A stretch of 64,000 nt of DNA from an uncultured Candidatus Saccharibacteria bacterium (GTDB lineage: Bacteria; Patescibacteriota; Andersenbacteria; UBA10190). The position numbers were made by a program, and so were the translations under genes. The number at the start of each line of letters is the position of its first letter. Within the stretch, counting starts at the first letter, position 1. Positions 11,902-55,575 of the stretch are shown here, piece after piece. Below the pieces are notes generated by a model. It worked only from the letters and a program-made list of their open reading frames with translations. It made no database searches and was not told where the DNA came from. The DNA lies in assembly GCA_964371255.1 (NCBI GenBank), contig CAYJKV010000001.1, positions 32,573 to 96,572 on the forward strand, written 5' to 3'.

Positions 11902-13119
11902 ATGACCAGACGGATAATTGGTAGGGCGATAATAGGCGGAGTGGTTGCGCTAATAGTGTTAGTGTCAGTGGCGCTGTGGTTTGCGTGGGATGGTCTGGCG
12001 GTAGAGAGGTGGATAACAAAAATGAGTCCGGATTTAATGGCCTGTGGGGTAGAAATGGTGCTGTTCAGCGAATGGCCAGCGGACAAGGATAAAGTATCGG
12101 CGATAACACCATTAGGTAGCATGGAGCCTGAAAGCGGAATGGTGTTTCCTCGTGATCGCCTGTTGTGGCATACGGGGGGTAAGGGTGGAGCGAACAACGG
12201 TGATCAGTCGATGCCCGTACAGATAGTGGCACCGGGTAATGGGTGGATAACTAAAGTCGAGGAGATTGAGTGGTGGTCTGGTAACAAAATGACAGAGCGG
12301 GATTTTGTGCTTTATTTTTCCCCCTGTCGAGAAGTGGAAGCTAAATTCAGTCACATACAAATGCTGGCTACCAATATCGATGAGCAGACGAAAGGGATGT
12401 GGAGTGAACAAGTTAGTGATCAGGCAGGTGCGGTAACTGTTCGATCAAGAGAGGCAAAAGTCAAGATTGCAGTGCGGGCAGGGGAGGGTATGGGTCGAGT
12501 TGGTGGAACAGAGCGCTCCCAGGCTTTTGATTGGGGTATGACAGACGAGAGAGGCAAAACCTTTAATCTTGCGAGTGCAACGCCTAAGGAATATCAAGCA
12601 GATTACACAGTTTGCCCGTTGGATTACTACGGGGGAGGGGTGCGGCGAGAATTGGAGAAATTGTTGGGAGATGGTCAAAAAACTAGAGAAATCATGCCGG
12701 TTTGTGGCTGGATAGACAAAAATATCGTGGGCACTTTGCAAGGCAGGTGGCGAGCAGAAAAGACGGCCCCGGGCGTGGGGGAGGATCAGCATGTGGCACT
12801 GGTGCATGATGAGATTGAGCCGCAGAAGCCTGTAATTAGCATGGGGACATCACTGCGGAAGAGCGGTTTGAAGGCCGGCTTGTATTATTTTCAAACAATG
12901 GAGACGGGCTATGTAAACAGAGATTTTGGCACGGTGACGGAGCAGGGGCAAGTTTATTGTTATCAGGGGATACGCGATGACCGGGGACAAATCGTACAAA
13001 GAATCGTGTTAATTGAACTGGTGGACGATAAATCTCTGCGCATGGAAGCGAGGCCGGGTTTTAGCTGTGCGGCCAATAATTATAATTTTTCTGACAGGAT
13101 GACAGCTTTTGAGCGTTAA
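11902..13119 (+). CDS. Hypothetical membrane-anchored protein (N-terminal TM, ~370-aa soluble domain), immediately upstream of the hydrogenase small subunit.
   Basis: TM segment IIGGVVALIVLVSVALWFAW. No family recognised. Only a 5-nt gap to the next gene. Confidence 0.4.
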   Translation: MTRRIIGRAIIGGVVALIVLVSVALWFAWDGLAVERWITKMSPDLMACGVEMVLFSEWPADKDKVSAITPLGSMEPESGMVFPRDRLLWHTGGKGGANNGDQSMPVQIVAPGNGWITKVEEIEWWSGNKMTERDFVLYFSPCREVEAKFSHIQMLATNIDEQTKGMWSEQVSDQAGAVTVRSREAKVKIAVRAGEGMGRVGGTERSQAFDWGMTDERGKTFNLASATPKEYQADYTVCPLDYYGGGVRRELEKLLGDGQKTREIMPVCGWIDKNIVGTLQGRWRAEKTAPGVGEDQHVALVHDEIEPQKPVISMGTSLRKSGLKAGLYYFQTMETGYVNRDFGTVTEQGQVYCYQGIRDDRGQIVQRIVLIELVDDKSLRMEARPGFSCAANNYNFSDRMTAFER

Positions 13120-13124
13120 CAGGC

Positions 13125-13646
13125 TTGGATAAATTTTATGTTATGATAGGGCACATGAAGGAACAAACCAAAAAATTGCGGGTGGGATGGTTTACCTTCA
13201 CTTGCTGTGAGGATTCGACAATAGTTTTTACAGAAGTTTTAAATGATTATTGGCAGGAATGGCGCAAGCGCATTGATTTTGTGCACGCGAGGATTTTGCA
13301 GGCAAAAAACTCGGAGGGGGAGTTAGATGTAGCATTTATTGAAGGGGCAATTTCCTCGGCAGAACAAAAGCAAAGATTAGAGAAGATTAGAAAGCAAGCG
13401 CAGTGGGTGGTGGCCGTGGGATCATGTGCGGTGGTGGGTATGCCCTCGGCGCAGCGTAACCAATTTGACGAAAAAACTAAACAAGAAATTGGCTTTATTT
13501 TAGAAAGATTTCATCACTTAGAGCACGTCATGTCTGTCAAGGACGTGGTCAAGGTGGAAGCGGAGTTGCCAGGTTGTCCGATGGATCCGAAGCAGTTTGT
13601 GGCGGTGGTCAATAAGGCGCTGGAGCATTTTGGCGTTGTTTCTTAA
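13125..13646 (+). CDS. [NiFe]-hydrogenase small subunit, NuoB/HoxY-like, with only the proximal [4Fe-4S] cluster.
   Basis: Four-Cys pattern FTCCEDS ... VGSCAVVG ... PGCPMDP (NuoB/Oxidored_q6 signature). No Tat signal. 173 aa. Confidence 0.75.
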   Translation: MDKFYVMIGHMKEQTKKLRVGWFTFTCCEDSTIVFTEVLNDYWQEWRKRIDFVHARILQAKNSEGELDVAFIEGAISSAEQKQRLEKIRKQAQWVVAVGSCAVVGMPSAQRNQFDEKTKQEIGFILERFHHLEHVMSVKDVVKVEAELPGCPMDPKQFVAVVNKALEHFGVVS

Positions 13647-13660
13647 AGCAAAGCACTAAT

Positions 13661-14956
13661 ATGCATACGATAGATTTAGACTTGTCCTTGGATGAGGTGA
13701 CAAAAGTGGAAGGAGCAGCAAAATTAGCAGTGAAGGTTCGCCGAGGCAAGGTTGAAAAATGCACTTTCGCGATTACTGAATATAAAAGATTTTACACGCA
13801 GGCCATGCGGGGAAAAATGTATAAGTCACTGCCGCAGCTGCTAATGAGGATTTGCGGTACTTGTTCTAACGCTCACCTGCTGGCTTCCATTGAGTCTTGT
13901 GAAAAGGCGCTGGGATATGACGTATCAGGACAAACTAAGATTATGAAGAATTTGACGGTAGATGGTTTATTAATTCGGGATCACGCGTTACATCTGTATT
14001 TATTCGCTTTGCCAGATCTGTATGGCAAGGACAATTTCCTGTCTTTAGACGACCAGGACGAGGAGCAACACCAGCATCTGCATGATGCTTTCGCCATCAA
14101 AGCAGCAGGGAATTATTTAGCGCAAATTATTGCTGGCCGCAGCGTCCACGCGATCAATCCGGTGATTGGCGGTTTTCTAAAAGTACCGTTGCAGGAAGAA
14201 GTAGATGAAGCAATTCGGTCGTTGGTTGAGATCAGGCCGGCGGTGCTGCGGTTAATTAATACGTTTGCCAAGTGTGACTGGCATTTTGATCGGCAGACTA
14301 ATTATATGGCGTTAGTGAGCAATCCCTATGGCTATTTGGAAGGACAAATTAAAGACAATCATGGCAAGGTTATTCCGGAAGATCTATACCGTGATCATCT
14401 GGAACGGGTGGTACTGCCTTACTCCCAAGCGTCTGGCTATACGTATCAGGGGGAGTCTTTTATGGTGGGAGCGCTGGCCCGAATGAATTTGTCCAAAGAA
14501 ACATTGCACGCAGACACTAAAAAGGATGCGGCTAAAGCGTTAGAAAGGTTTCCGTCCACTAATATTTATGACAATAACCTGGCTCAGGCGATTGAGATAT
14601 TAAATGCCATGGACACGGCCGAGTATCTGCTTAGAACAACTAAGTTTAAAGCAGAGAAACCAGCCGAACCGACAAAAAAAGAGGGTGTAGGCGTGGGGGT
14701 AGTGGAAGCACCAAGGGGGACATTATATCATCGGGTTGAAATTGAGACGGATGGCAAAGTGTCGCAAGGCACTATCGTCGTACCAACCGGGCAGAATCAG
14801 ATCAATATCGAACAGGACTTAGCGAGTGTAGCTGAGCAGAAGATAAGCGAGGGGAAAAACAAGGATGAAATTCAATTTGAGATGGAAAAACTGATCCGAG
14901 CTTATGATCCGTGCATGAGCTGCGCGGCGCATTTTTTGGAAGTTAAATGGAACTGA
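13661..14956 (+). CDS. [NiFe]-hydrogenase large (catalytic) subunit.
   Basis: N-terminal L1 motif RICGTCSNAH (RxCGxCxxxH) and C-terminal L2 motif DPCMSCAAH (DPCxxCxxH). 431 aa. Confidence 0.9.
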   Translation: MHTIDLDLSLDEVTKVEGAAKLAVKVRRGKVEKCTFAITEYKRFYTQAMRGKMYKSLPQLLMRICGTCSNAHLLASIESCEKALGYDVSGQTKIMKNLTVDGLLIRDHALHLYLFALPDLYGKDNFLSLDDQDEEQHQHLHDAFAIKAAGNYLAQIIAGRSVHAINPVIGGFLKVPLQEEVDEAIRSLVEIRPAVLRLINTFAKCDWHFDRQTNYMALVSNPYGYLEGQIKDNHGKVIPEDLYRDHLERVVLPYSQASGYTYQGESFMVGALARMNLSKETLHADTKKDAAKALERFPSTNIYDNNLAQAIEILNAMDTAEYLLRTTKFKAEKPAEPTKKEGVGVGVVEAPRGTLYHRVEIETDGKVSQGTIVVPTGQNQINIEQDLASVAEQKISEGKNKDEIQFEMEKLIRAYDPCMSCAAHFLEVKWN

Positions 14957-21076: not shown

Positions 21077-21838
21077 ATGGCCAAAGACCTTTATATATAC
21101 ACGAGCGCAGAGAAACAATGGGGACGGGTACGACCGCTGAGGGGCTGGACGGAACGGAAGGTATTAGCGTTCTCGCCCCACGCTGATGATTTAAGTATTG
21201 CGGCTGGCGGATTCTTGCATCTACTGGGCAAGCAAAATGACGTGCAGCCGGTATTAGGTTTTACGGGATGGCGGGGAGTAGGTAATGGTCTAACCAAGAA
21301 TGAAGCGACCGTCTGGCGGGAGAAGGAAATGACAGCCGAGGCGCAATTGTTAGGCATTAAACCGCCAGTATTTTTGAGACTGTTGTCATATGAAAATACA
21401 ATGGAGGAGGATATTAATAAGGACAGGGCGACGGTGAAGGAACTAATTGATCAAGAGCAACCAGACATAATCTTTTTGCCGAGCAAGGATGACAGCCAAC
21501 CGCGGCATAGTCTGCTGACAAAATTAATCTGGCAGGCAGTAGAGAAAAGCTCTGCACCAGCGACCCTCGTTTATTATGAAACGCCCTGGTCGTTATTCGC
21601 GGCCGATCGGATTGATTTACTGGTACCGCTTGATCAGGCAGTAATGACGCGGAAAATAAAGGCGATAAAAGCGCACGCATCGCAGTTAGCGCGGACGAAT
21701 TTTGTGAAGATTAGCCAGACGATGCTGGAATACCGTGCGCTGACGGTACCGGAACAACTGGTGAGTGGTTTTGGTTCGCAGAATGATTTTGGGCAATGGA
21801 TGGAGGTTTATGCTATGGAGCGCTATAAAGAAGAATGA
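21077..21838 (+). CDS. PIG-L/LmbE-family N-acetylglucosaminyl deacetylase.
   Basis: FSPHADDLSIAAGG (HxDD zinc-binding motif of the LmbE family). Confidence 0.7.
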   Translation: MAKDLYIYTSAEKQWGRVRPLRGWTERKVLAFSPHADDLSIAAGGFLHLLGKQNDVQPVLGFTGWRGVGNGLTKNEATVWREKEMTAEAQLLGIKPPVFLRLLSYENTMEEDINKDRATVKELIDQEQPDIIFLPSKDDSQPRHSLLTKLIWQAVEKSSAPATLVYYETPWSLFAADRIDLLVPLDQAVMTRKIKAIKAHASQLARTNFVKISQTMLEYRALTVPEQLVSGFGSQNDFGQWMEVYAMERYKEE

Positions 21839-22584
21839 TGGGCATAGAAAGAATTGTAGTGGATGATTATGAGGAATTGTCCAAACAAGCGGCCAAGCTA
21901 GTCGCGCAGAGAATAAAAGAAAAGCCGACGCTGGTTTTAGGATTAGCGACTGGCTCGACACCAATTGGTTTGTATGAACGATTGGTGGCGATGTATCGCC
22001 AAGGTGAAATTGATTGGTCGCAAGTAACGACTTTTAACCTGGATGAGTATTGCGGGTTAGAGACCAGCCATCCGCAAAGTTACCGATATTTTATGGATGA
22101 ACATTTGTTCAGCCGGGTGAATATTGATCGTGGAAGGACTAATTTTCCCAGCGAAAGAAAGGTTGCAGGTTATGAACGGGCAATCAAGGAGGCCGGCGGC
22201 ATTGATCTGCAAATACTAGGCATCGGGCGGAATGGGCACATAGGTTTTAATGAACCAGGGTCGCAGTTTGATTCGCAAACGCGCGTGGTGGAGCTAACCG
22301 AGACGACGATTCAGGACAATGCACGGTTTTTTGTGCGGAGAGATGAGGTGCCAAGAAAAGCGGTAACTATGGGTTTAGAGACTATTATGGAGTCCCGGGA
22401 AATATTATTGCTAGCCAGCGGTGCCAATAAGGCGGAGGTGGTGCAGAGAATGTTGTCTCAAAAGCCGTCCTGGGATGTACCGGCTTCGGTATTGCAAGGA
22501 CATAATAAGGTGATAATAATGACAGATAGAGAAGCGGCAGGGACAATCGCCCCGGATCACCAATTGCCCATGACCAAACATTGA
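21835..22584 (+). CDS. nagB: Glucosamine-6-phosphate deaminase.
   Basis: LGLATGSTP and LGIGRNGHIGFNEPGS signatures. 4-nt overlap with the deacetylase gene. Confidence 0.8.
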   Translation: MMGIERIVVDDYEELSKQAAKLVAQRIKEKPTLVLGLATGSTPIGLYERLVAMYRQGEIDWSQVTTFNLDEYCGLETSHPQSYRYFMDEHLFSRVNIDRGRTNFPSERKVAGYERAIKEAGGIDLQILGIGRNGHIGFNEPGSQFDSQTRVVELTETTIQDNARFFVRRDEVPRKAVTMGLETIMESREILLLASGANKAEVVQRMLSQKPSWDVPASVLQGHNKVIIMTDREAAGTIAPDHQLPMTKH

Positions 22585-36076: not shown

Positions 36077-36515
36077 ACCTAAGTGGTTAGTGGGGGGACA
36101 AATCGGGGTGGCAGTGATTGGCCTATTTATCGCTACTTTTCTGGCGGCTGAGCATGTGCGCGGTACTTTTCCGCCTTGTTCAATTATTGATGGCTGCCAT
36201 ACTGTGTTAGGCAGCAAATATGCTGAGGTTGGCGGGTTACCGACAGCGTCCTTCGGAGTAATTTATTATTTGGCATTAATACTGTTGGGAGTGGCGTACT
36301 TGCAAGGCGGGCGGATGGCTTGGTTGCAGTTGTCTCTTCGATTATCGGGGATGGGGGTGCTGGTATCGCTTTATCTAGTTTATCTGCAACTGTTCGTCAT
36401 CGGTGCTATTTGCCCGTATTGCATGTCGTCAGCAGCAGTCTGTTTTTTGTTACTGGGAATTGATTTGCTAATCTGGCGGCGGCACATACACGACCATCAA
36501 GAAGTTTTGGCTTAG
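36033..36515 (+). CDS. Vitamin K epoxide reductase (VKOR) family protein.
   Basis: Loop Cys pair (PPCSIIDGCH) and active-site CPYC in a TM helix. Overlaps the DsbA-like gene. Confidence 0.65.
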   Translation: MNNSSSLSNATWGNKPKWLVGGQIGVAVIGLFIATFLAAEHVRGTFPPCSIIDGCHTVLGSKYAEVGGLPTASFGVIYYLALILLGVAYLQGGRMAWLQLSLRLSGMGVLVSLYLVYLQLFVIGAICPYCMSSAAVCFLLLGIDLLIWRRHIHDHQEVLA

Positions 36516-37357
36516 GCAGAAGGCTGCGCCGTGAAGTCACTGATGAGGGCTAACGCGCCATAAAAAGCCCGGTCATCACCGAGCGCGGCCGGTTTGATGG
36601 CGGGAGGGGTGGGTATGAACGCAGTGAGTTGAGTAGTCAAGTCGCTGACCTGATTAATGGAAATATCTCGCATCATCGGACCTCCCAACACGATCACAGA
36701 AGGGGACCAGAGAAAGGTTATGTTGGTTAAACCGTAAGCGAGGGACTGGGCCAGCAATGACCAAACAGCAGAGTCCTTAATTTCTTTGGGGTGACAATTA
36801 AATCGCCGCGCGACGCTGGCACCGCCCACTAAATCTTCTAGGGTAGAGGGGTGGTGGCAGTTAGGGCAGAGGTGACCACTGGCATCAATGATCTGGAAAC
36901 CAGGCTCAAAACCATACGTATTCGCATCGATTTTTTGATTGACGATGCGGGCACCGCCAACTCCGGTGCTGATGGTTAGATAGGCGACGATAGCAAAACC
37001 GCGGCCGGCGCCGCTGCAAGCTTCGCCTAAACCAGCCAAAGCAGAGTCATTAATAATATGAACCGGAGCGTGGGATATTTTTTCCAGAGCGGCTTGAATA
37101 GGCTGGCCAATCCAGCCGCGTAAGTTAGGAGAAGCGGCCAAGCGGCCGGCTGATTTATTGAACGTACCGGGTAAACCAACTATAACGCCTTGGAGGTTTT
37201 GATCGGCAATGAGCGGACGGATTTGGCCGTCAAGCAAACTGACCGCGTCGGCAAAAATAGGCGGGGTGGGAAATTTAACGGGTGGATTGAAAGAAGCAGA
37301 GGAAGACGCAGTGGTTAGGCGCGTGTTGGTGCCGCCGATGTCTATTAGGAGGAACAT
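36512..37357 (-). CDS. ROK-family sugar kinase / BadF-type ATPase. Start assigned to the internal ATG (MFLLIDIGGTNTRL).
   Basis: N-terminal LIDIGGTNTR phosphate-1 motif; Cys/His zinc motif HLCPNCHHPS. Confidence 0.65.
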   Translation of the reverse strand: MFLLIDIGGTNTRLTTASSSASFNPPVKFPTPPIFADAVSLLDGQIRPLIADQNLQGVIVGLPGTFNKSAGRLAASPNLRGWIGQPIQAALEKISHAPVHIINDSALAGLGEACSGAGRGFAIVAYLTISTGVGGARIVNQKIDANTYGFEPGFQIIDASGHLCPNCHHPSTLEDLVGGASVARRFNCHPKEIKDSAVWSLLAQSLAYGLTNITFLWSPSVIVLGGPMMRDISINQVSDLTTQLTAFIPTPPAIKPAALGDDRAFYGALALISDFTAQPSA

Positions 37358-37749
37358 AATAATAGTATAAAATCCCAAATCAGAAATACGAAATAAATTC
37401 CAATAACCAATCAAATCCCAAGCCCCAATAACCAATGACCAAGCAAATCTTAAATCCCAAATCCTAAAAAACAAATTCTCTTTTTCACCAAGTCCCCAGC
37501 TTTTTGTAATCGCTGGTTCTGGGTGAGTTCTCCCGGGATAAGGGGAGTTAGAAGGGTTTTTCGTTAATGGGTGCCAGTTAACTCCCCTTATTCTCTCTTA
37601 ACCCCCCACATCGCCGAGGCTTCGCAGGACACAGTAGGGGGAAATCATAACTTTCTCCTTATGATGGTGAGTTGTTACAGCTTTTACGAACTTGTGTATT
37701 AAATGAGCTTGGGTATAATAACGTGATAATTATTTATTATATTTGACTT

Positions 37750-45398: not shown

Positions 45399-46805
45399 AT
45401 GGTGACAGTAACGTTTTTTGGGGGCGCGGGCGGCGTGACGGGCTCCAAACATCTGGTGGAGCATAACAATAAAAAGACTTTGTTGGATTGCGGGACTTTT
45501 CAGGGTTTGTCAGATGTGAGGGAACGCAATCGCGCTTTGCCCTTCAGGCCGGAGACAATTGATCGGGTAGTATTATCCCACGCCCATGTTGATCATTGCG
45601 GCATGTTATTGATCTTGGTGAAGCGAGGTTTTACTGGTCCGATTCTAGCCACGGCCGCGACAAAAGAAGTGGTCAATTATATGCTGCTCGACATGGTAGG
45701 GATAGAGGCTGGCGACGCGGAATTTAGACGAAAACATCGGATCGGTGCGCCGGACGAGCGTGAGCCTTTATTTGAGGAAGAGGATGTAGCGCCAGTGATG
45801 AAGCAGTTTGTGGAGGTGCCGTACGTGCGGGAAAACAAAGGTTGGTACCCGATTGACGACGAGACGGACCTAAGGTTTTATGATGCGGGACATATTCTAG
45901 GGTCGGCTGTCAGTGTGCTTCGTTTCAAGTCGAGTAATTTTACCATGGCTTATACCGGCGATTTAGGCTCAGTCGGGATGCCGCTATTGTTTGATCCGGA
46001 AGTACCACAAGAAGAGATCCAGTTTGTGATTTGTGAAAGCACTTATGGCAGCCGCAAACATCAACCTTTGCAGCAAGCCCTGGACAGAATGGCTGCGGCG
46101 ATTAACCGGACATGCGCGCGAGGCGGAAAAATTATTGTGCCAGCTTTCTCCTTGGGACGGACGCAAGAGCTAGTCTATTGGTTACATAAGATGGTGGATA
46201 CTAAACAAATTCCCCGGTTTCCTATTTACGTTGATTCACCATTAGCAACTGACTTAACAGAGGTTTATCGGCATCATCGAGATGATTATGATGAAGAGTC
46301 ATGGACAGATTTTCCCAGGGCAGATGATCGGCCATTAGCTTTTCGCAATCTACGGTATGTGACATCGCGCGATGAGTCAGTCAGTTTGAATAGTAAAGCA
46401 GGGCCTTTTATGGTGATTTCCGCGTCAGGTATGATGTCGGCGGGACGAGTAGTACATCATTTGAAGAATAACTTATCAGATGCGAAGAACACAGTTTTTG
46501 TTACCGGATACCAGGCGGAGGGAACGTTGGGACGAAGAATACTGGAAGGAGCAAAGAGTGTCGATATATTTGGTGAGCCGGTAAGGGTCAGAGCCCAGGT
46601 GGAACTGTTGAATGAACTATCCGCACATGCTGATCGTGAACAACTACAGAGTTATCTGGAAAAAATCAGGGGACTGAGACGTGTCGCATTAGTGCATGGC
46701 GAGCCGCACCAGGCGGATGATTTAAAAAAGCAACTACAAACAGCCCATTCTGATTGGCAGGTTGATCGACCCGAGGAAGGAGAAACTCTTGAGATTAATA
46801 AGTAA
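45399..46805 (+). CDS. Metallo-beta-lactamase / beta-CASP RNA-processing nuclease (RNase J / CPSF-like).
   Basis: HAHVDHCG (HxHxDH); beta-CASP motifs including SAHAD near the C-terminus; 468 aa. Confidence 0.8.
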   Translation: MVTVTFFGGAGGVTGSKHLVEHNNKKTLLDCGTFQGLSDVRERNRALPFRPETIDRVVLSHAHVDHCGMLLILVKRGFTGPILATAATKEVVNYMLLDMVGIEAGDAEFRRKHRIGAPDEREPLFEEEDVAPVMKQFVEVPYVRENKGWYPIDDETDLRFYDAGHILGSAVSVLRFKSSNFTMAYTGDLGSVGMPLLFDPEVPQEEIQFVICESTYGSRKHQPLQQALDRMAAAINRTCARGGKIIVPAFSLGRTQELVYWLHKMVDTKQIPRFPIYVDSPLATDLTEVYRHHRDDYDEESWTDFPRADDRPLAFRNLRYVTSRDESVSLNSKAGPFMVISASGMMSAGRVVHHLKNNLSDAKNTVFVTGYQAEGTLGRRILEGAKSVDIFGEPVRVRAQVELLNELSAHADREQLQSYLEKIRGLRRVALVHGEPHQADDLKKQLQTAHSDWQVDRPEEGETLEINK

Positions 46806-49303: not shown

Positions 49304-51184
49304 ATGCCAATAGACGAGTTAGTAATTGGTGAACGGCGGATCGGTCCAAACCAGCCGGTTTTTGTCATTGCTGAAGCGTCCGTCAACCATAATGGCAGCG
49401 TCAAGCGGGCGCGCGAATTGATTGCGGCGGCCGCGGCAGCGGGAGCCGACGCGGTCAAGTTCCAGAAGCGTAACTTGGACCAAGTGTACCAAAAAAAACT
49501 GCTTGATAATCCTAATAGCGCGGAGCAGAAATATCAGTATCTGCTACCTTTATTAAAGGAATTTGAACTGGCCGATGAAGTGTTTGTGGAGCTGGAAAAG
49601 TATGCGCACGAGCTGGAAATAATGTTTCTGGTTAATGGATGGGATGCCATGAGCGTCAGGTGGATTGAGGAAAATTTGCGGATGCCAGTGCATAAGGTGG
49701 GATCGCCGGATATGACTAATGATGAGTTATTGGAAATTATTATGGCCACCGGTAAGCCCATGATTGTTTCCACGGGGATGAGTCGGGAAGAAGAGATTGA
49801 CCATATGGTGGCGTTACTGCAGAGTCATCACGCCGTATTCGCCTTGCTGCATACGAATAACATTTATCCGGCGCCGTTTGACGAGATCAATCTGAAATTC
49901 ATGGACCGGTTGGCTAAATATGGTCAGCCAGTCGGCTATTCTGGTCACGAACGGGGCATCGCGATATCGATTGCGGCGGTAGCGCGTGGAGCGACGGTGA
50001 TTGAGCGTCACTTAACGGTGGATCGGTCACTGGAGGGGCCGGACCACCAAGCCAGTTTGCTGCCAATGGAATTCAAGGAAATGGTTAAAAGTATCCGACA
50101 GGTTGAGATAGCATTAGGGGATGGTAAGAAAAAATTTACAAGAATTGAGCAGATGAATCGGGAACAATTGGGCAAGAGTATCGTAGCGAAAACTTTTATC
50201 AGTGATGGCGCGATTATCACCAGGGAATTGTTAACAACCAGGAGTCCGGCGAAAGGATTGTCGCCACAAAGAATGCAGGAGATAATTGGCATGAAAGCGC
50301 CACGAGATATTCCAGCAGGGGATGCATTGACGGAGGATGACCTGACGGCTGATCAAATATTAAAAACCTTCAACGGCAAAGGATTGCCATGGAAGTGGGG
50401 TCCAATTGTGCGGCTCAAAGAAGATTTTGAACGGTACCTGGAATATGAGCCAAAAGTGTTTGAGTTTCACTTGAGCGACAAAGATTTGGAAGAAGAGGTG
50501 CCGCGCGGCCGGTTCAGTCAGGAAGTGATAGTGCACGCTCCGGAGTATATGCATCGGTTATATTTAAATCCGGCAGCGGAAGACGCCGAAGAAAGAAAAG
50601 TTGCTATCAACACTTTGCAGCGGAGCATTACGGTAGCGGAAAAGTTAGCGGAATCTTTTACAGGACCGGTGAAATTGGTAATCCATCCGTGCGGGATAAC
50701 GTCACAGCCAGCAGACAATCCGGCGAAATTATTAGAGATATTTGGCGATACTTTACAGCAGCTTAAAACTCATACGGTGGAGTTGCTGCCGGAGAATATG
50801 CCTCCCCGGCCATGGGTGTTCGGAGGAGAATGGGTAGGGAATATTTTTCTGCTGGGCGAGGAGATTAAGCGATGGTTGGAACAGACGGGTTATCAGATGT
50901 GTTTTGATACGTCACATGCGGCGTTAGCTTGTAATGCGGCCGGATATGATCTGGTAAAAATGGTGCGAGAATTGAAGCCATTCATCCGACATTTGCATGT
51001 TTCAGACGCTAGCGGGATAGGAGATGAGGGATTGCAAATTGGCGAAGGGACGATCGATTGGGTGAATGTTATGCGGGAATTAACGGGATATAAGCATACG
51101 ATGGTGCCGGAAATATGGCAGGGACATTTGCATGGCGGCAAAGGTTTTCTCCAAGGGATGGAGCATTTACGAAAATATTGGTAA
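49304..51184 (+). CDS. Fusion protein: N-acetylneuraminate (nonulosonate) synthase NeuB-like (TIM barrel plus SAF domain) joined to a C-terminal xylose-isomerase-like TIM-barrel sugar-phosphate isomerase/epimerase domain.
   Basis: NeuB N-terminus QPVFVIAEASVNHNGS..A..LI..A...GADAVKFQ. SAF region KSIVAKTFISDGAIITRELL. C-terminal domain with HLHVSDASG and CFDTSHAAL. Confidence 0.75.
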   Translation: MPIDELVIGERRIGPNQPVFVIAEASVNHNGSVKRARELIAAAAAAGADAVKFQKRNLDQVYQKKLLDNPNSAEQKYQYLLPLLKEFELADEVFVELEKYAHELEIMFLVNGWDAMSVRWIEENLRMPVHKVGSPDMTNDELLEIIMATGKPMIVSTGMSREEEIDHMVALLQSHHAVFALLHTNNIYPAPFDEINLKFMDRLAKYGQPVGYSGHERGIAISIAAVARGATVIERHLTVDRSLEGPDHQASLLPMEFKEMVKSIRQVEIALGDGKKKFTRIEQMNREQLGKSIVAKTFISDGAIITRELLTTRSPAKGLSPQRMQEIIGMKAPRDIPAGDALTEDDLTADQILKTFNGKGLPWKWGPIVRLKEDFERYLEYEPKVFEFHLSDKDLEEEVPRGRFSQEVIVHAPEYMHRLYLNPAAEDAEERKVAINTLQRSITVAEKLAESFTGPVKLVIHPCGITSQPADNPAKLLEIFGDTLQQLKTHTVELLPENMPPRPWVFGGEWVGNIFLLGEEIKRWLEQTGYQMCFDTSHAALACNAAGYDLVKMVRELKPFIRHLHVSDASGIGDEGLQIGEGTIDWVNVMRELTGYKHTMVPEIWQGHLHGGKGFLQGMEHLRKYW

Positions 51185-51242
51185 TAGTTGTTCTTTTGAG
51201 GAGCAGGTTGTAATAAGCATTTTAAGGAATTAGTTTGAATAT

Positions 51243-52034
51243 ATGTACAAGTTAAGAAAATTTTATCCACCAGGTTTTAATCCCCAGCAATATTGGGCAG
51301 ATAGATACGCACAGGAGCATATTGCTGGCCGCAGCAGCGATGAGTTTCGACGGCAGGATTTTTGGCCGCTCATGAAGCAGCATTTACCCCGAGATAAGAA
51401 AATACTGGACGCTGGTTGCGGCGTTGGGGGATGGATTATATTTTTAAAGGAGGAGGGTTTTGATGTCGAGGGTATTGATAGCGCGGCGCGGACGGTGCGG
51501 GCAATGACGGAATATGACCCTGAAATAAAAGTGAAGATAGCAGACGTAGATGCTATCCCCTATCCAGATAACTTGTTTGGGGGAGTGGTCGCAGTGGGCG
51601 CCCTAGAATACGTGGAGGATAGAGTGGATGAGGCACTTAGGGAAGTTAATCGGGTGCTTGGGCCGGAGGGTGTATTTCTTCTGGAGGTACCGATTACAAA
51701 CTTATTGCGGCGCCTATTTTATATTCCGCTAAAAGAGCTGGAAAGACGGATAAAGGGATGGCAGGGTAATGAACCTGTCTTTGCCAATTATTTTTTTGAT
51801 CGACATGAGCTGGTCAGGAAGCTCAAAGCGACTGGTTTTTCTATTATCACAGAGCAGCCGCACGAGTTGCCAGACAGTAACAGTCATTATGGTTTATACG
51901 TTGATTGGAAATGGTTAAGAGGCAGCGAGCCGTATCATCTGAATTTTCTTGGGTTGGCCATCAAAAAATTAGCCAACCTTATTTCACCATGGATTGCTTC
52001 GACCGGTATGGTGATTGTCGCAAAGAAGCGTTGA
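51243..52034 (+). CDS. Class I SAM-dependent methyltransferase.
   Basis: Motif I ILDAGCGVGGW; motif post-I DVEGID. Confidence 0.7.
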   Translation: MYKLRKFYPPGFNPQQYWADRYAQEHIAGRSSDEFRRQDFWPLMKQHLPRDKKILDAGCGVGGWIIFLKEEGFDVEGIDSAARTVRAMTEYDPEIKVKIADVDAIPYPDNLFGGVVAVGALEYVEDRVDEALREVNRVLGPEGVFLLEVPITNLLRRLFYIPLKELERRIKGWQGNEPVFANYFFDRHELVRKLKATGFSIITEQPHELPDSNSHYGLYVDWKWLRGSEPYHLNFLGLAIKKLANLISPWIASTGMVIVAKKR

Positions 52035-52059
52035 CTAATTTTTGTTTGATAACATCAGA

Positions 52060-52155
52060 TTAAAAACCTCCGCCAAAGACAGCGAGACCGAGAGTTAGTG
52101 CAATGAAAACAAGAAGAGCGAGGGTTAACCACTGCATCGTATTTTGCTCATTCAT
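52060..52155 (-). CDS. Unannotated small hydrophobic peptide (31 aa, single TM): MNEQNTMQWLTLALLVFIALTLGLAVFGGGF.
   Basis: ATG preceded by GGGAGGTGATCC. Same SD/spacer architecture as the acidic peptide at 32114. Confidence 0.3.
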   Translation of the reverse strand: MNEQNTMQWLTLALLVFIALTLGLAVFGGGF

Positions 52156-52327
52156 GAAGGATCACCTCCCGTAGTTTTTCTATAAAAGATAGATAACTAG
52201 TAATTACTATTTTACCTTAATTCGTTTGAAGTTGCGAGTAAAGCCTGGGAGTTTTTTGGGAGTGTTCGTTTTAGCAAGAACCAAGGCAGTGCAGCGCCAA
52301 ACAAGATGGAGTATACTTGACTTTTAG

Positions 52328-53131
52328 GTGACGGCGAGTAGTCTTCTAATCTATTACATTAATTTTTACTTTGACCAGATGAGCCAAGACAATAACAGTA
52401 TAAGAGGCAAAATAGTGGTTTTAACCGGTGGGTGCGGTTTTTTAGGTAAATATTTTAGCCGCCTCTTGCTTGAGGCAGGAGCTAAAGTGATTGTGACAGA
52501 TGTGACGAAGGGGGCGGATTTGATAATGGATGTGACAGATCAAAAATCTATTGATGGGAGTTTGGAGGAAATCACAAAGGAACACGGAAAGATTGATGTA
52601 ATGATTAATAATGCCGCGATTGATCCTAAGTTTGACGTGGGTGTGAAGCAGAATCAGTATGAGTTCGTGAATTATCCGGAGGAAGCGATGCAGCAAAGCA
52701 TAAATGTTAATTTACTAGGCACGTGGCGGGTGTGCAAGACGGCTGTAAAAATTATGCGTGAACAAGGGTTTGGCAATATTGTGAACGTGGCTTCGTTTTA
52801 TGGGGTCACGCCCCCACGACAAGAAATCTACCCGGCGGGGACAGAAAAACCAGTTGATTATCCAGTGACAAAAGCGGGTGTGATTATGTTAAGCAGGCAG
52901 ATTGCATCCCAATTCGGACGGGATGGGATCAGGTGTAATGTGCTGGCACCCGGCGGCGTTTTAAAAGAGCAGTCGCTGGAATTTCAGGCTGAATATGAAC
53001 GACATACCTCCTTGGGCCGTATGACGATGCCAGATGAAGTGAGTGATGCATTGTTATTCTTAGCCAGCGACCGTTCACGGGGAATGACCGGCGAGGTTTT
53101 AGTGGTTGATGCCGGTTGGCGGTCAAGATAA
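52328..53131 (+). CDS. Short-chain dehydrogenase/reductase (SDR). True start probably the internal Met (MSQDNN...).
   Basis: TGGCGFLG (TGxxxGxG); NNAAI (NNAG-like); YxxxK region. Confidence 0.8.
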   Translation: MTASSLLIYYINFYFDQMSQDNNSIRGKIVVLTGGCGFLGKYFSRLLLEAGAKVIVTDVTKGADLIMDVTDQKSIDGSLEEITKEHGKIDVMINNAAIDPKFDVGVKQNQYEFVNYPEEAMQQSINVNLLGTWRVCKTAVKIMREQGFGNIVNVASFYGVTPPRQEIYPAGTEKPVDYPVTKAGVIMLSRQIASQFGRDGIRCNVLAPGGVLKEQSLEFQAEYERHTSLGRMTMPDEVSDALLFLASDRSRGMTGEVLVVDAGWRSR

Positions 53132-54073
53132 TTAGATAGAAGGCCAGTGGGCCGGATCGACTTGATGAGGATCAGTAATGGCCAAATCAGACAATTTAGT
53201 AAGAACTGCCGGTGGCAGGGGGTCTTTATTAATCGCCGAGAGAGCGCTTCGTAAATGTTGCGGATCGATTGTACCAATTAGAATGGTCGAGACGGCTGGA
53301 TTGGCAGCGGCAAAACGAATAGCCAAACTGGGCAGGTCGGTGGACATTTTTTCCGCGATAGCCGCGGCTTGCGCGGAATTTTCTTTGAGTGGATTTAAGG
53401 CAAGGGGGAGATGCCGGACGGCGTTAGTGAGAGCACCCTTTAATAAAACTGAGCGATTGATAATACCGATACCATGAGCCAGGGCAGAGGGGAAAACATG
53501 TGCAGCCATGCGTTGATCCAGGATACTATAAGCAGTTTGGATGGTGGAAAAGAAACCGGTTTTAATGGCCGTGAGTGGTGCCTCTTCACCCCGGGTGGCA
53601 ATTCCGACATGCTGCACTTTTCCCTCTTCGATTAAACGTCGCAAAATATCTATTAATTCTCCACGCTCAATTTGTTCTGACGAACCGCCGTGCAGCTGTA
53701 ATAACTGGAGGGAGTCTTGCCGCAGCCGGCGTAGGCTTTCTTCTACCTCGACCCGGATCATATTTTCCAAATCACGGCCGCGCGGATCGGCGCCTTTTTC
53801 TAAGAATTGAGCGCACTTGGTGCCGATTATGATATTTGGCAGGCGACCGATACCGGAACGGCCAATGCGTTCTTCAGCTACGCCATAACCATGAGCGGTA
53901 TCAAAATAAGTAATCCCTAAATCCACAGCCGTTTTTAGAATTCGCTCGGCTGCTTCGTTGGTCGGTAGTGAAGTCGCCCCAATGCCATATGGCAGACCGA
54001 TTTCAACAGTACCAAGACCGATCGGCGAAACATTGAAGACAGTTGAACCCAAAGGGCGTATTACGGTAGTCAT
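53132..54073 (-). CDS. Aldo/keto reductase family oxidoreductase.
   Basis: FDTAHGYG motif; (beta/alpha)8 length of 313 aa. Confidence 0.85.
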   Translation of the reverse strand: MTTVIRPLGSTVFNVSPIGLGTVEIGLPYGIGATSLPTNEAAERILKTAVDLGITYFDTAHGYGVAEERIGRSGIGRLPNIIIGTKCAQFLEKGADPRGRDLENMIRVEVEESLRRLRQDSLQLLQLHGGSSEQIERGELIDILRRLIEEGKVQHVGIATRGEEAPLTAIKTGFFSTIQTAYSILDQRMAAHVFPSALAHGIGIINRSVLLKGALTNAVRHLPLALNPLKENSAQAAAIAEKMSTDLPSLAIRFAAANPAVSTILIGTIDPQHLRSALSAINKDPLPPAVLTKLSDLAITDPHQVDPAHWPSI

Positions 54074-54149
54074 AGTTTAAGCGTAGCATATTGGGAACAA
54101 TGTTTAGAGGAGATCGGGAAGATGGCAGAGAACATCAAAAAAGAAGTAA

Positions 54150-54656
54150 TCAAGCTAAGAGCGACAGGGGGATTTTGACAATTAATTTTTGTACGAAGTT
54201 ATTGCCAGAGTGGGGCAGGCCGGGCTGATGTGCGTCAGGAGGGAAGAAAACGGCGACGCAGCGGGGTAGCATGACAACGGATCGCAATGGTTTGCGGGGA
54301 GGATTATATAAAGTATAGTCCGCAGCGGGGTGATGCGAGATGGGAGATAATTGATCAATGGGAGCGACTTGAATGATTTCACTGCCGGATAAACAAATAT
54401 GGATGTCAATATGAAGCAAATGGGATTCGTATCGGTTTTGGTCTGGCCGGGCGGTTGCCATTGTTTTGAGATGAGCTTGAATAGTAGGGAAATCTGGATG
54501 ACAGAAAGTATTGTCCTGGTCGGAAACGGGAATGGCAGGCAGCCAAGAAAACACCGCGCGCCAAGCAGGCTGCGGCAGCTGTTTGTATAGCAGATCGAGG
54601 TTGTCCAGACTGCCGATAATTGCCATATGTTTGTTTTTAGTATAACCACTTAACAA
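54150..54656 (-). CDS. YhcH/YjgK/YiaL (DUF386, NanQ-like) family protein. Probable start is the internal Met (MAIIGSL).
   Basis: HIDIHI (HxDxH) cupin-like metal motif; ~154 aa. Family associated with sialic-acid metabolism. Confidence 0.5.
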   Translation of the reverse strand: MLSGYTKNKHMAIIGSLDNLDLLYKQLPQPAWRAVFSWLPAIPVSDQDNTFCHPDFPTIQAHLKTMATARPDQNRYESHLLHIDIHICLSGSEIIQVAPIDQLSPISHHPAADYTLYNPPRKPLRSVVMLPRCVAVFFPPDAHQPGLPHSGNNFVQKLIVKIPLSLLA

Positions 54657-54690
54657 TAAGTAAGTAGGAATAATGTTTCTCTAACATAGC

Positions 54691-55575
54691 TTGCGTTATT
54701 GGTCAATAAAGTGGTATAGAGAGCGCATGGGTAAAGAGACTAATAATCCGAAAAGGGACACCGTAGAAGTGGTCGCAATTATTCCTGCTCGGGGAGGACA
54801 GCAAAGCATACCTTACAAAAATTTACAGCCGCTTGGCGGAAAAACTTTATTGGCTTGGGCGGTTGAAGTCGCAATAGCAGCGGAATCGGTAGACGCAGTG
54901 CTTGTATCTACGGAAGATGCAAGGATAGCGAGGGAGTCAAAGAAATTAGGCGCGATAGTAATCCCCCGCCCGAAAAAATATTCGCAGCCGGACAGCAGCG
55001 ATGCGGGGTGGTATAGCCACGCGGTGCAGTGGATGGAAGAGGAAAAAGGGTGGCAGCCGGAACTGATCGTTAATTTGCGGCCGACCAGTCCGCTGCGTTT
55101 TGCGCGGGATGTGGACGCGATGGTCAAATATATGAGGAATAATCCGCAAGCCGATGGGCTTAAGAGTGTGGTCCCAGCACCCATCCATCCTTATAAAATG
55201 TGGACTTTTAAGTCTGAGACTGCGGGGGATAGCGGAGCGCGCGGCAATGAGGATAATGACCGGTCATTAGCAGTGGGCGAAGCGGCTGAACTGCAGGCTG
55301 TGTTTGATAATGATTTTCGCCGGACGCATGGCCCGGACCAGCCGCGACAATATATTCAACAGCAGTGGCCGATTTATTGGCAGGACGGGCAGGTTGACAT
55401 TACACGACGCCGATTTGTGCTGCGTCCGGAATGCTTAGAATATGATAATGTGTGGGGAGAAAACCTTCATGGCTACGTTCTGGATCCGCGTACAAGTACA
55501 GACTTAGATACACCCGAGGATTTTTACCGGGCAGAAAAAATATATAAGGAGTTGCGGGCAGCTAAGGGAGAATGA
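54691..55575 (+). CDS. Acylneuraminate (CMP-nonulosonate) cytidylyltransferase.
   Basis: VVAIIPARGGQQSIPYKNLQPLGGKTLLAW, the N-terminal cytidylyltransferase signature. Confidence 0.75.
   Translation: MRYWSIKWYRERMGKETNNPKRDTVEVVAIIPARGGQQSIPYKNLQPLGGKTLLAWAVEVAIAAESVDAVLVSTEDARIARESKKLGAIVIPRPKKYSQPDSSDAGWYSHAVQWMEEEKGWQPELIVNLRPTSPLRFARDVDAMVKYMRNNPQADGLKSVVPAPIHPYKMWTFKSETAGDSGARGNEDNDRSLAVGEAAELQAVFDNDFRRTHGPDQPRQYIQQQWPIYWQDGQVDITRRRFVLRPECLEYDNVWGENLHGYVLDPRTSTDLDTPEDFYRAEKIYKELRAAKGE

Follow-up and report, generated by a model that had tools for sequence, protein, structure and literature searches.

What would a synthase of sialic acid-like sugars do with a barrel resembling xylose isomerase fused to its end? 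The question is raised by a cluster of six genes in a stretch of 64,000 nucleotides, the window in what follows, from an uncultured Candidatus Saccharibacteria bacterium placed by GTDB in the Andersenbacteria (contig CAYJKV010000001.1, positions 32,573 to 96,572). One of these genes encodes a protein of 626 residues made of three domains, NeuB, SAF and a xylose isomerase-like TIM barrel. The sugars at stake, nonulosonic acids, are found on flagella, pili, S-layers and capsules, and influence how cells interact with one another and with their hosts. Judging from sequence, we see an even chance that the cluster makes a nine-carbon, sialic acid-like surface sugar and activates it with cytidine monophosphate (CMP), by way of a bifunctional synthase/phosphatase. 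The NeuB/SAF half would condense phosphoenolpyruvate (PEP) with mannose-6-phosphate or N-acetylmannosamine-6-phosphate (ManNAc-6-P) into a nonulosonate 9-phosphate, the barrel, a metal site of the endonuclease IV kind, would then strip the 9-phosphate, and the neighbouring cytidylyltransferase would CMP-activate the resulting free acid, destined for a surface glycan of this cell of the candidate phyla radiation (CPR). The acid might be similar to ketodeoxynononic acid (Kdn) or to N-acetylneuraminic acid (Neu5Ac).

The layout of the protein is as a preliminary description, made from the letters of the DNA, had read it, and the Pfam check agrees. NeuB (PF03102) covers residues 39-276 (E 1.6e-75, 254.1 bits against a cut-off of 22.1), SAF (PF08666) residues 292-347 (E 1.8e-9, 38.4 bits against 21) and AP_endonuc_2, the family labelled 'xylose isomerase-like TIM barrel', residues 407-625 (E 7.4e-22, above the curated cut-off). 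Conservation and an AlphaFold2 model place the beginning of the barrel near residue 363; the predicted TM score (pTM) of this full-length model, 0.52, makes the relative placement of its two active sites unusable. One might suspect that so long an open reading frame (ORF) is an artefact of assembly, or a frameshift, joining two genes. Such a view could draw on two loci where the halves are separate ORFs, L018 and L061, but it is confronted with an identical 626-residue protein on 21 contigs (one of which, of 157.8 kb, spans the window) from several independent ENA and Logan samples, with more than 120 clusters (90% identity) of full-length NeuB-SAF-barrel proteins of about 626 residues, and with a single ORF in 77 of 80 loci retained from a scan of species genomes belonging to many phyla. 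We therefore ruled the artefact out, leaving it next to no credence, and the fusion is genuine. The proteins in these clusters are 57-99% identical to that of the window, and their named members are 'Candidatus Andersenbacteria'. In the Andersenbacteria-type locus L018 (2545-4425) and in L061 (8797-10795), synthase and barrel are separate or overlapping ORFs, reflecting either a true split or an assembly frameshift.

How far does this architecture extend? Residues 355-626, used as a query against 1.84 billion representative proteins, had 674 relatives at E <=1e-3 and 350 at E <=1e-10; among the best 149, about 90 carry an N-terminal NeuB and about 25 are complete stand-alone proteins. Two fused layouts were met, NeuB-SAF-barrel (about 630 residues) and CBS-NeuB-SAF-barrel (about 750 residues), and in the one context of a stand-alone barrel that was examined (L011) its gene shares 4 bp with a distinct NeuB-SAF gene. 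When one genome of each GTDB species was scanned with a trimmed alignment of 11 barrels (A4), the domain turned up in at least 592 species genomes. The 80 loci kept for the study of context come from CPR lineages, Desulfobacterota, Chloroflexota, Gemmatimonadota, Acidobacteriota, Nitrospirota, Leptospira, Desulfofustis, Chlorobium, a Campylobacteraceae genome and one archaeon, Methanoregula. In a neighbour-joining (NJ) tree every fused NeuB domain falls in a single clade, apart from the unfused NeuB of the same loci, from PseI and from the NeuB of Neisseria meningitidis (NmNeuB). This clade, together with the single-ORF state across phyla, tells us that the fusion is old, obligate and widespread, and the idea that it is a peculiarity of the window genome is not borne out.

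Indeed, the architecture is not a rare one and has been on record since Ricaldi et al. (2012, PMC3438082) reported in Leptospira interrogans 'a unique gene fusion' of the nonulosonic acid synthase (YP_002104 / NP_711794), noted that its C-terminal domain is homologous to endonucleases cleaving phosphodiesters, and proposed that this domain is a phosphatase acting in an animal-like route, where a phosphorylated hexosamine is condensed and the product then dephosphorylated by the fused domain; this mechanism is also the one we favour. In the literature we found no later experimental test of this phosphatase hypothesis; the searchable literature gave no paper on nonulosonic acids in CPR/Patescibacteria, none on a fusion of NeuB with a xylose isomerase-like domain, and nothing useful on MJ1311, a protein taken up below. 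Our own comparison was made with the locus of Leptospira ainlahdjerensis (L083) rather than with the L. interrogans accession: the fused ORF has the same architecture, belongs to the same NJ clade, and its C-terminal domain is 38% identical to that of the window. The surroundings differ, a legionaminic acid-type locus with GHMP kinase, SIS protein and nucleotidyltransferase in Leptospira, and a module of methyltransferase, short-chain dehydrogenase/reductase (SDR), aldo/keto reductase and YhcH protein in the window. What is reported here is a member of this known family of fusions in the CPR, with a distinctive conserved module.

The synthase half speaks first for the nature of the substrate. 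Its catalytic and metal residues E24, H215, E234 and H236 (E25, H215, E234 and H236 in NmNeuB) are kept in 75-76 of 76 fused proteins, and as in the bacterial enzymes NeuB, LegI and PseI (compared through NmNeuB, 1XUZ, and PseI, 8H2C) one finds the same Pfam domains, the catalytic Glu, the His ligands and the Lys and Ser that bind PEP. The likeness to these enzymes has its limits: identity is 28-36%, the fusion is longer by about 280 residues and comes without a NeuC, LegG or PseG hydrolase, and the equivalog models are missed, both that of N-acetylneuraminate synthase (NeuB_NnaB, TIGR03569; 319.8 bits, below the cut-off of 399.65) and that of pseudaminic acid synthase (PseI, TIGR03586; 217.6 bits, below 340.25). 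Two positions are of particular weight. Where NmNeuB has E134, all 76 fused proteins have an Asp (D136 in the window protein), and where it has Arg314 none has an Arg (39 Gly, 31 Ser, including the window protein, 3 Thr, 2 Ala and 1 Cys). E134D and the loss of Arg314 are the two changes that separate eukaryotic NANS from bacterial NeuB; Glu134 is placed near the phosphate of ManNAc-6-P, and Arg314, in the SAF domain, is essential in NmNeuB (PMC8208679). In our sample vertebrate NANS shows Asp at the first position in six cases out of six, and its second position holds Gly or Ala and in no case Arg; PseI has both Glu and Arg, and among the unfused bacterial homologues in these loci six of eight have Glu and all six that possess an SAF domain have Arg. 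The window protein thus bears both hallmarks of the NANS type and neither of those, Glu134 and Arg314, of the bacterial type that uses the free sugar.

Further kinship with NANS is visible in the GYSGHE, DHxAS and LGKS motifs, and in six (L58, D136, Y212, G214, H248 and K291) of the 13 positions specific to the fused clade, which are common to the vertebrate enzymes. With BLASTP the window NeuB domain scores 228-238 bits against six vertebrate NANS, its best-scoring unfused relatives, at most 207 against unfused bacterial proteins, 146 against NmNeuB and 129 against PseI; the six NANS were retrieved with a human query, and database proteins were used in all comparisons. In the NJ tree, which had 6 NANS and 10 unfused outgroups, NANS and two short unfused Chloroflexi proteins together stand as sister to the fused clade. 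The resemblance is not identity, which lies between 36 and 39%, and NANS has a Ser where the fused proteins have the invariant R56. By its residue signature the NeuB domain would be of an animal NANS-like subtype, one that takes a phosphorylated acceptor and leaves a phosphate to be removed.

Is the barrel, then, the enzyme that removes it? A family profile built from 31 diverse members (alignment A3), 27-40% identical to the window domain, matches MJ1311 (PDB 3WQO) at 6.7e-19 and endonuclease IV proteins at 7.9e-12, 2.7e-8, 7.9e-6 and about 1e-4; sugar epimerases come far behind, UlaE at 5e-3 and the L-ribulose and D-tagatose 3-epimerases and YcjR at 0.05-0.2. There is also a weak match to CbiR, a phosphodiesterase of small molecules. 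Eleven positions are invariant in all 31 members (E33, H57, D181, H184, H211, D214, E221, G222, G228, E249 and G253), with H254 nearly so, and the suspicion that the domain might hold no conserved catalytic residues is thereby dispelled. In the profile alignment H57, H107, E143, D181, H184, H211 and E249 (H411, H461, E497, D535, H538, H565 and E603 of the full-length protein) pair with identical residues of the Mycobacterium tuberculosis endonuclease IV; we take them for seven of the nine residues that coordinate the trinuclear metal site in Escherichia coli Nfo. Endonuclease IV and MJ1311 are also the best structural matches and have the fold of the barrel. To our knowledge MJ1311 has no known function. 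As the barrel is always coupled to a sugar synthase, which is not the case of endonuclease IV, its substrate would presumably be a small sugar phosphate rather than DNA.

The preliminary description had suggested another role, that the fused domain might supply or epimerize the hexosamine. In its general form, the barrel would be a metal-dependent isomerase or epimerase of sugars or sugar phosphates making the manno-configured aldose that NeuB needs, for example mannose-6-phosphate from fructose-6-phosphate, ManNAc(-6-P) from N-acetylglucosamine (GlcNAc) or its 6-phosphate, or an epimer of a keto-sugar produced by the SDR. The Pfam family, AP_endonuc_2, would suit it, and E497, D535, H565 and E603 sit at the positions of the Glu-Asp-His-Glu metal and catalytic tetrad of ketose 3-epimerases, on strands 4, 5, 6 and 8. 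This tetrad is a subset of the conserved positions of the barrel, and the residues alone are thus compatible with an isomerase or an epimerase. Ketose 3-epimerases use the Glu of strand beta-4 as catalytic base; in the CBS-type proteins, about one third of the family, this first Glu is a Gln, and the base would be removed there. Moreover, the similarity of profiles lies 7 to 10 orders of magnitude below that seen with endonuclease IV, the conserved set is rich in His (H57, H184, H211, H254) where the sites of sugar isomerases are rich in carboxylates, and a partner NeuB with both animal-type substitutions would still require a phosphatase, which no gene nearby encodes. With seven of nine endonuclease IV ligands kept, the comparison favours a barrel nearer, by its sequence, to endonuclease IV than to sugar epimerases, and we consider the isomerase or epimerase unlikely.

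The genes around the fusion add to the picture. The neighbours in the 80 loci were clustered and annotated with Pfam, two metagenome contigs (L010 and L012) being considered in addition. The partner met most often is the CMP-transferase, with a homologue no more than 10 kb from the fusion in 54 of the 80 loci. A PtmA-like SDR occurs in 35 and a methyltransferase (recognized with a profile built from the neighbour cluster) in 41. Minimal loci, reduced to the fusion, the CMP-transferase and transferases, are found in L010, inside a Wzz/ABC capsule locus, in L012, and in Chloroflexi, where genes for the synthesis of 3'-phosphoadenosine 5'-phosphosulfate (PAPS), a Capsule_synth protein and a sulfotransferase-like gene are added. 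A UDP-GlcNAc 2-epimerase of the NeuC/LegG type is present in five loci; L027, L066, L070 and L087 also have a second, unfused NeuB, which was not found in the fifth, L053. This usual absence of a NeuC-type hydrolase near the fusion fits a substrate drawn from the pool of sugar phosphates. For an isomerase or epimerase, the 75 other loci would mean that the step supplying the substrate is missing and could be that of the barrel, the SDR, barrel and reductase together fitting a scheme of oxidation, epimerization and reduction.

The same 75 loci can be invoked for a phosphoesterase acting before condensation, which would take a sugar-1-phosphate or a nucleotide sugar and release the aldose, in place of the step of NeuC, LegG or PseG. 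The endonuclease IV-like signature and the weak match to CbiR would agree with it, as would the many loci of the Gemmatimonadota type with nucleotidyltransferase, 4,6-dehydratase and aminotransferase, and those of the Leptospira and Chlorobium type where a GHMP kinase and a nucleotidyltransferase stand beside the fusion. Yet the window cluster and the minimal loci made of fusion and CMP-transferase have no nucleotide-sugar genes, E134D and the lack of Arg314 point to a phosphorylated acceptor and not to a free sugar, and the known NDP-sugar hydrolases cleave a glycosidic C-O bond, a chemistry unlike that of endonuclease IV. We hold this role to be somewhat more improbable still than that of an isomerase; for the loci that do have nucleotidyltransferase, 4,6-dehydratase and aminotransferase, or GHMP kinase and SIS protein, it keeps some likelihood. 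Finally, the barrel could modify the keto-acid sugar after condensation, as a dehydratase, an epimerase or an oxidase. Its fold is that of IolE, AsbF, TM0416 and the DUF692/MbnB iron enzymes, but at the profile level it has no similarity to these families, and the fusion recurs amid very different tailoring genes; with tailoring genes that differ so widely among loci, the barrel more likely performs a general step that belongs to the synthase reaction itself, and there is little to recommend a modifying enzyme. Among these roles we favour the phosphatase, and place about half of our confidence in it. The names under which the fused proteins are now annotated, 'N-acetylneuraminate synthase family protein' or 'sialic acid synthase SpsE/sugar phosphate isomerase/epimerase', probably misstate both halves.

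Several facts weigh against a phosphatase. The third metal site of endonuclease IV has lost its Asp-x-His pair, the segment with D229 and H231 ('rdrh' in 5zhz) being an insertion absent from the barrel family, which shows an invariant E221-G222 there, and in the CBS-type proteins H107 becomes Asn and E143 Gln; the site is, as a consequence, a non-canonical endonuclease IV centre. Some fused loci have a 4,6-dehydratase and an aminotransferase, which, if they feed the fused synthase, would yield 6-deoxy sugars unable to bear a 6-phosphate. The cluster has no kinase, no ManNAc-6-P epimerase and no mannose-6-phosphate isomerase, the only candidates in the window being a ROK kinase 12 kb away and NagB. 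The tree that makes NANS a sister group is small, distance-based and poor in outgroups, and it disagrees with Ricaldi et al. (2012, PMC3438082), who remark, with their data not shown, that the synthase of Leptospira and those of animals did not group together; the kinship is therefore a lead and not a result. Enzymatic activity, across the whole fusion family, is predicted from sequence alone. A side observation concerns the CBS-NeuB-SAF-barrel subgroup, where the 'HPGG' His and the 'PEN' Glu are replaced jointly by Asn and Gln, a coupled loss of two ligands of metal site 1.

It is worth placing the proposed phosphatase beside the systems where such a step is established. In animals NANP, and in Bacteroides the Kdn-9-phosphate phosphatase, are separate phosphatases of the HAD type. 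Compared with the NANS and NANP pair, the phosphatase of the window would be fused, would have the fold of endonuclease IV, and would work without a GNE-type epimerase/kinase. Bacteroides thetaiotaomicron starts from a common sugar phosphate and uses in turn a Kdn-9-phosphate synthase, a Kdn-9-phosphate phosphatase and a CMP-Kdn synthetase, a logic that matches the recurrent core of fusion and CMP-transferase, with a distinct HAD enzyme as phosphatase; this comparison was made by description only. If the fused barrel is a phosphatase, many environmental bacteria and archaea would share a phospho-sugar, 'animal-like' route to sialic acids, with a bearing on the debate over how the eukaryotic pathway arose, and the endonuclease IV fold would gain a function as a phosphatase of small molecules. 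It is tempting to go further and to see in the fused proteins the prokaryotic sister lineage of the eukaryotic Neu5Ac-9-phosphate synthase, bearers of a phospho-route that would be ancient and widespread in bacteria and archaea, CPR included, with a so far unrecognized class of endonuclease IV-fold phosphatases of small molecules that includes the orphan structure MJ1311, and used in Andersenbacteria to make a methylated, redox-tailored nonulosonic acid for the cell surface; this we put forward tentatively, as a view rather more likely to fail than to hold.

The gene cluster itself is presented in Table 1. That an unusually long NeuB stands at the centre of a cluster for the synthesis and activation of a nonulosonic acid-type sugar is supported, and Pfam and NCBIfam agree with the set of neighbours first described. 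Two labels, CMP-nonulosonate synthetase and NanQ, stand at the level of the family and fail at that of the equivalog, both falling below the NCBIfam cut-offs.

Table 1. Domains of the fused synthase and genes that accompany it in the window
Feature	Position	Strand	Length or residues	Evidence
Fusion ORF, ATG start	49304..51184	+	626 aa	
NeuB-type TIM-barrel synthase domain, NANS-like subtype	49304..50143	+	residues 1-280	Pfam and conserved residues
SAF (antifreeze-like) domain	50171..50347	+	residues 290-348	Pfam
Endonuclease IV-like, xylose isomerase-fold TIM barrel, putative phosphoesterase	50390..51184	+	residues 363-626 and stop codon	
Class I S-adenosylmethionine-dependent methyltransferase	51243..52034	+	263 aa	Pfam Methyltransf_23/11/25
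Classical SDR, PtmA-like	52415..53131 (alternative GTG 52328)	+	238 aa	Pfam adh_short_C2 1.4e-41
Aldo/keto reductase	53132..54073	-	313 aa	Pfam Aldo_ket_red 7e-36
YhcH/YjgK/YiaL (DUF386) protein	54150..54626	-	158 aa	Pfam DUF386 2.9e-22
CMP-ulosonate synthetase-like cytidylyltransferase	54727..55575 (alternative TTG 54691)	+	282 aa	Pfam CTP_transf_3 7.5e-16

The match of the cytidylyltransferase to CTP_transf_3 (59.0 bits against 22.6) concerns its N-terminal half only, PseF is reached at 82.1 bits, below 205.7, and the scores with the KdsB models fall well short of the thresholds set for them. The YhcH protein passes TIGR00022 (52 bits, cut-off 45.5) and falls short of the NanQ anomerase equivalog NF040884 (58.7, cut-off 160). 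For the SDR, whose gene was also called in L001, the top NCBIfam matches, PRK09186 and the flagellin modification protein PtmA, are both below cut-off. In the gap of about 380 bp between methyltransferase and SDR (52035-52414) we found no convincing ORF, Rfam match or tRNA, and the GTG start could extend the SDR into it; Rfam and tRNA scans of the window likewise found nothing.

The six genes are kept, in shuffled order and orientation, in L007 and L008, where the fusion proteins are 59% and 65% identical to that of the window, and each of the 13 species genomes of the Andersenbacteria type that were retrieved (L013-L025) has the set. A neighbourhood that is shuffled and nevertheless retained argues for a functional linkage of its six genes, and the module is specific to Andersenbacteria-type genomes. 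The methyltransferase lies immediately 3' of the fusion in all such loci, and the aldo/keto reductase is, as a partner, nearly confined to them. The four genes other than the fusion and the cytidylyltransferase would be lineage-specific tailoring or helper enzymes. The methyltransferase suggests, by its presence, an O-methylated sugar; the SDR and the aldo/keto reductase might epimerize a hydroxyl through a keto intermediate; and the YhcH protein might handle anomers or accelerate the interconversion of ring and open forms ahead of activation.

Elsewhere the fusion keeps other company. In six loci of Chloroflexota (L028, L030, L031, L033, L039 and L045) one finds in series a bifunctional gene similar to sulfate adenylyltransferase/adenosine 5'-phosphosulfate (APS) kinase, an SDR, the CMP-transferase, the fusion, a Capsule_synth protein (KpsS/KpsC-like), a methyltransferase and a gene with a sulfotransferase-like motif, the sulfurylase and sulfotransferase being assigned by eye; this series suggests a sulfated polymer of ulosonic acid. 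In L. ainlahdjerensis, in Chlorobium phaeovibrioides (L092) and in L086 the fusion stands beside a nucleotidyltransferase, a GHMP kinase and a SIS-domain protein (GmhA/PtmF-like), a set resembling the pathway to GDP-heptose minus its phosphatase, and also the legionaminic acid enzymes PtmE and PtmF. A sugar of ten carbons made from heptose-7-phosphate was considered for the Leptospira and Chlorobium loci and left unexplained, the genes matching PtmE/PtmF as well. Longer fused genes, of about 770-870 residues, occur in Gemmatimonadota and Kiritimatiellia (L068, L069, L077, L082 and L089). Genes for a thiamine-diphosphate enzyme, a GFO oxidoreductase, an SDR and an FkbM methyltransferase come after them and form another tailoring set, an elaborate one.

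Returning to the window, a PIG-L-family deacetylase (21077-21838) adjoins a glucosamine-6-phosphate deaminase, the pair spanning 21077-22584, and with NagB at 278.8 bits against an equivalog cut-off of 236.9 this makes a node of amino-sugar phosphates in a small CPR genome. A generic ROK-family kinase (36512-37474, minus strand), below all NCBIfam cut-offs, with weak matches to models of, among others, glucokinase and ManNAc kinase, is found 12 kb upstream of the cluster. With these three genes in the window hexosamine-6-phosphates are plausibly available. As the substrate supply proper of the cluster they were rejected, the ROK kinase being generic and none of the three being linked to the cluster in the relatives L007 and L008. 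The window has about 47% G+C, with a GC skew positive throughout. Genes for the small and large subunits of a NiFe-hydrogenase (13125-14956, plus strand; Oxidored_q6 and NiFeSe_Hases) adjoin that of a 405-residue protein without Pfam match (11902-13119). Upstream of the cluster, both here (45399-46805, plus strand) and in L008, lies a gene for a beta-CASP/MBL ribonuclease, whose top NCBIfam match is the type VII CRISPR protein Cas14, at 394 bits far below the cut-off of 800, and which also matches aCPSF1.

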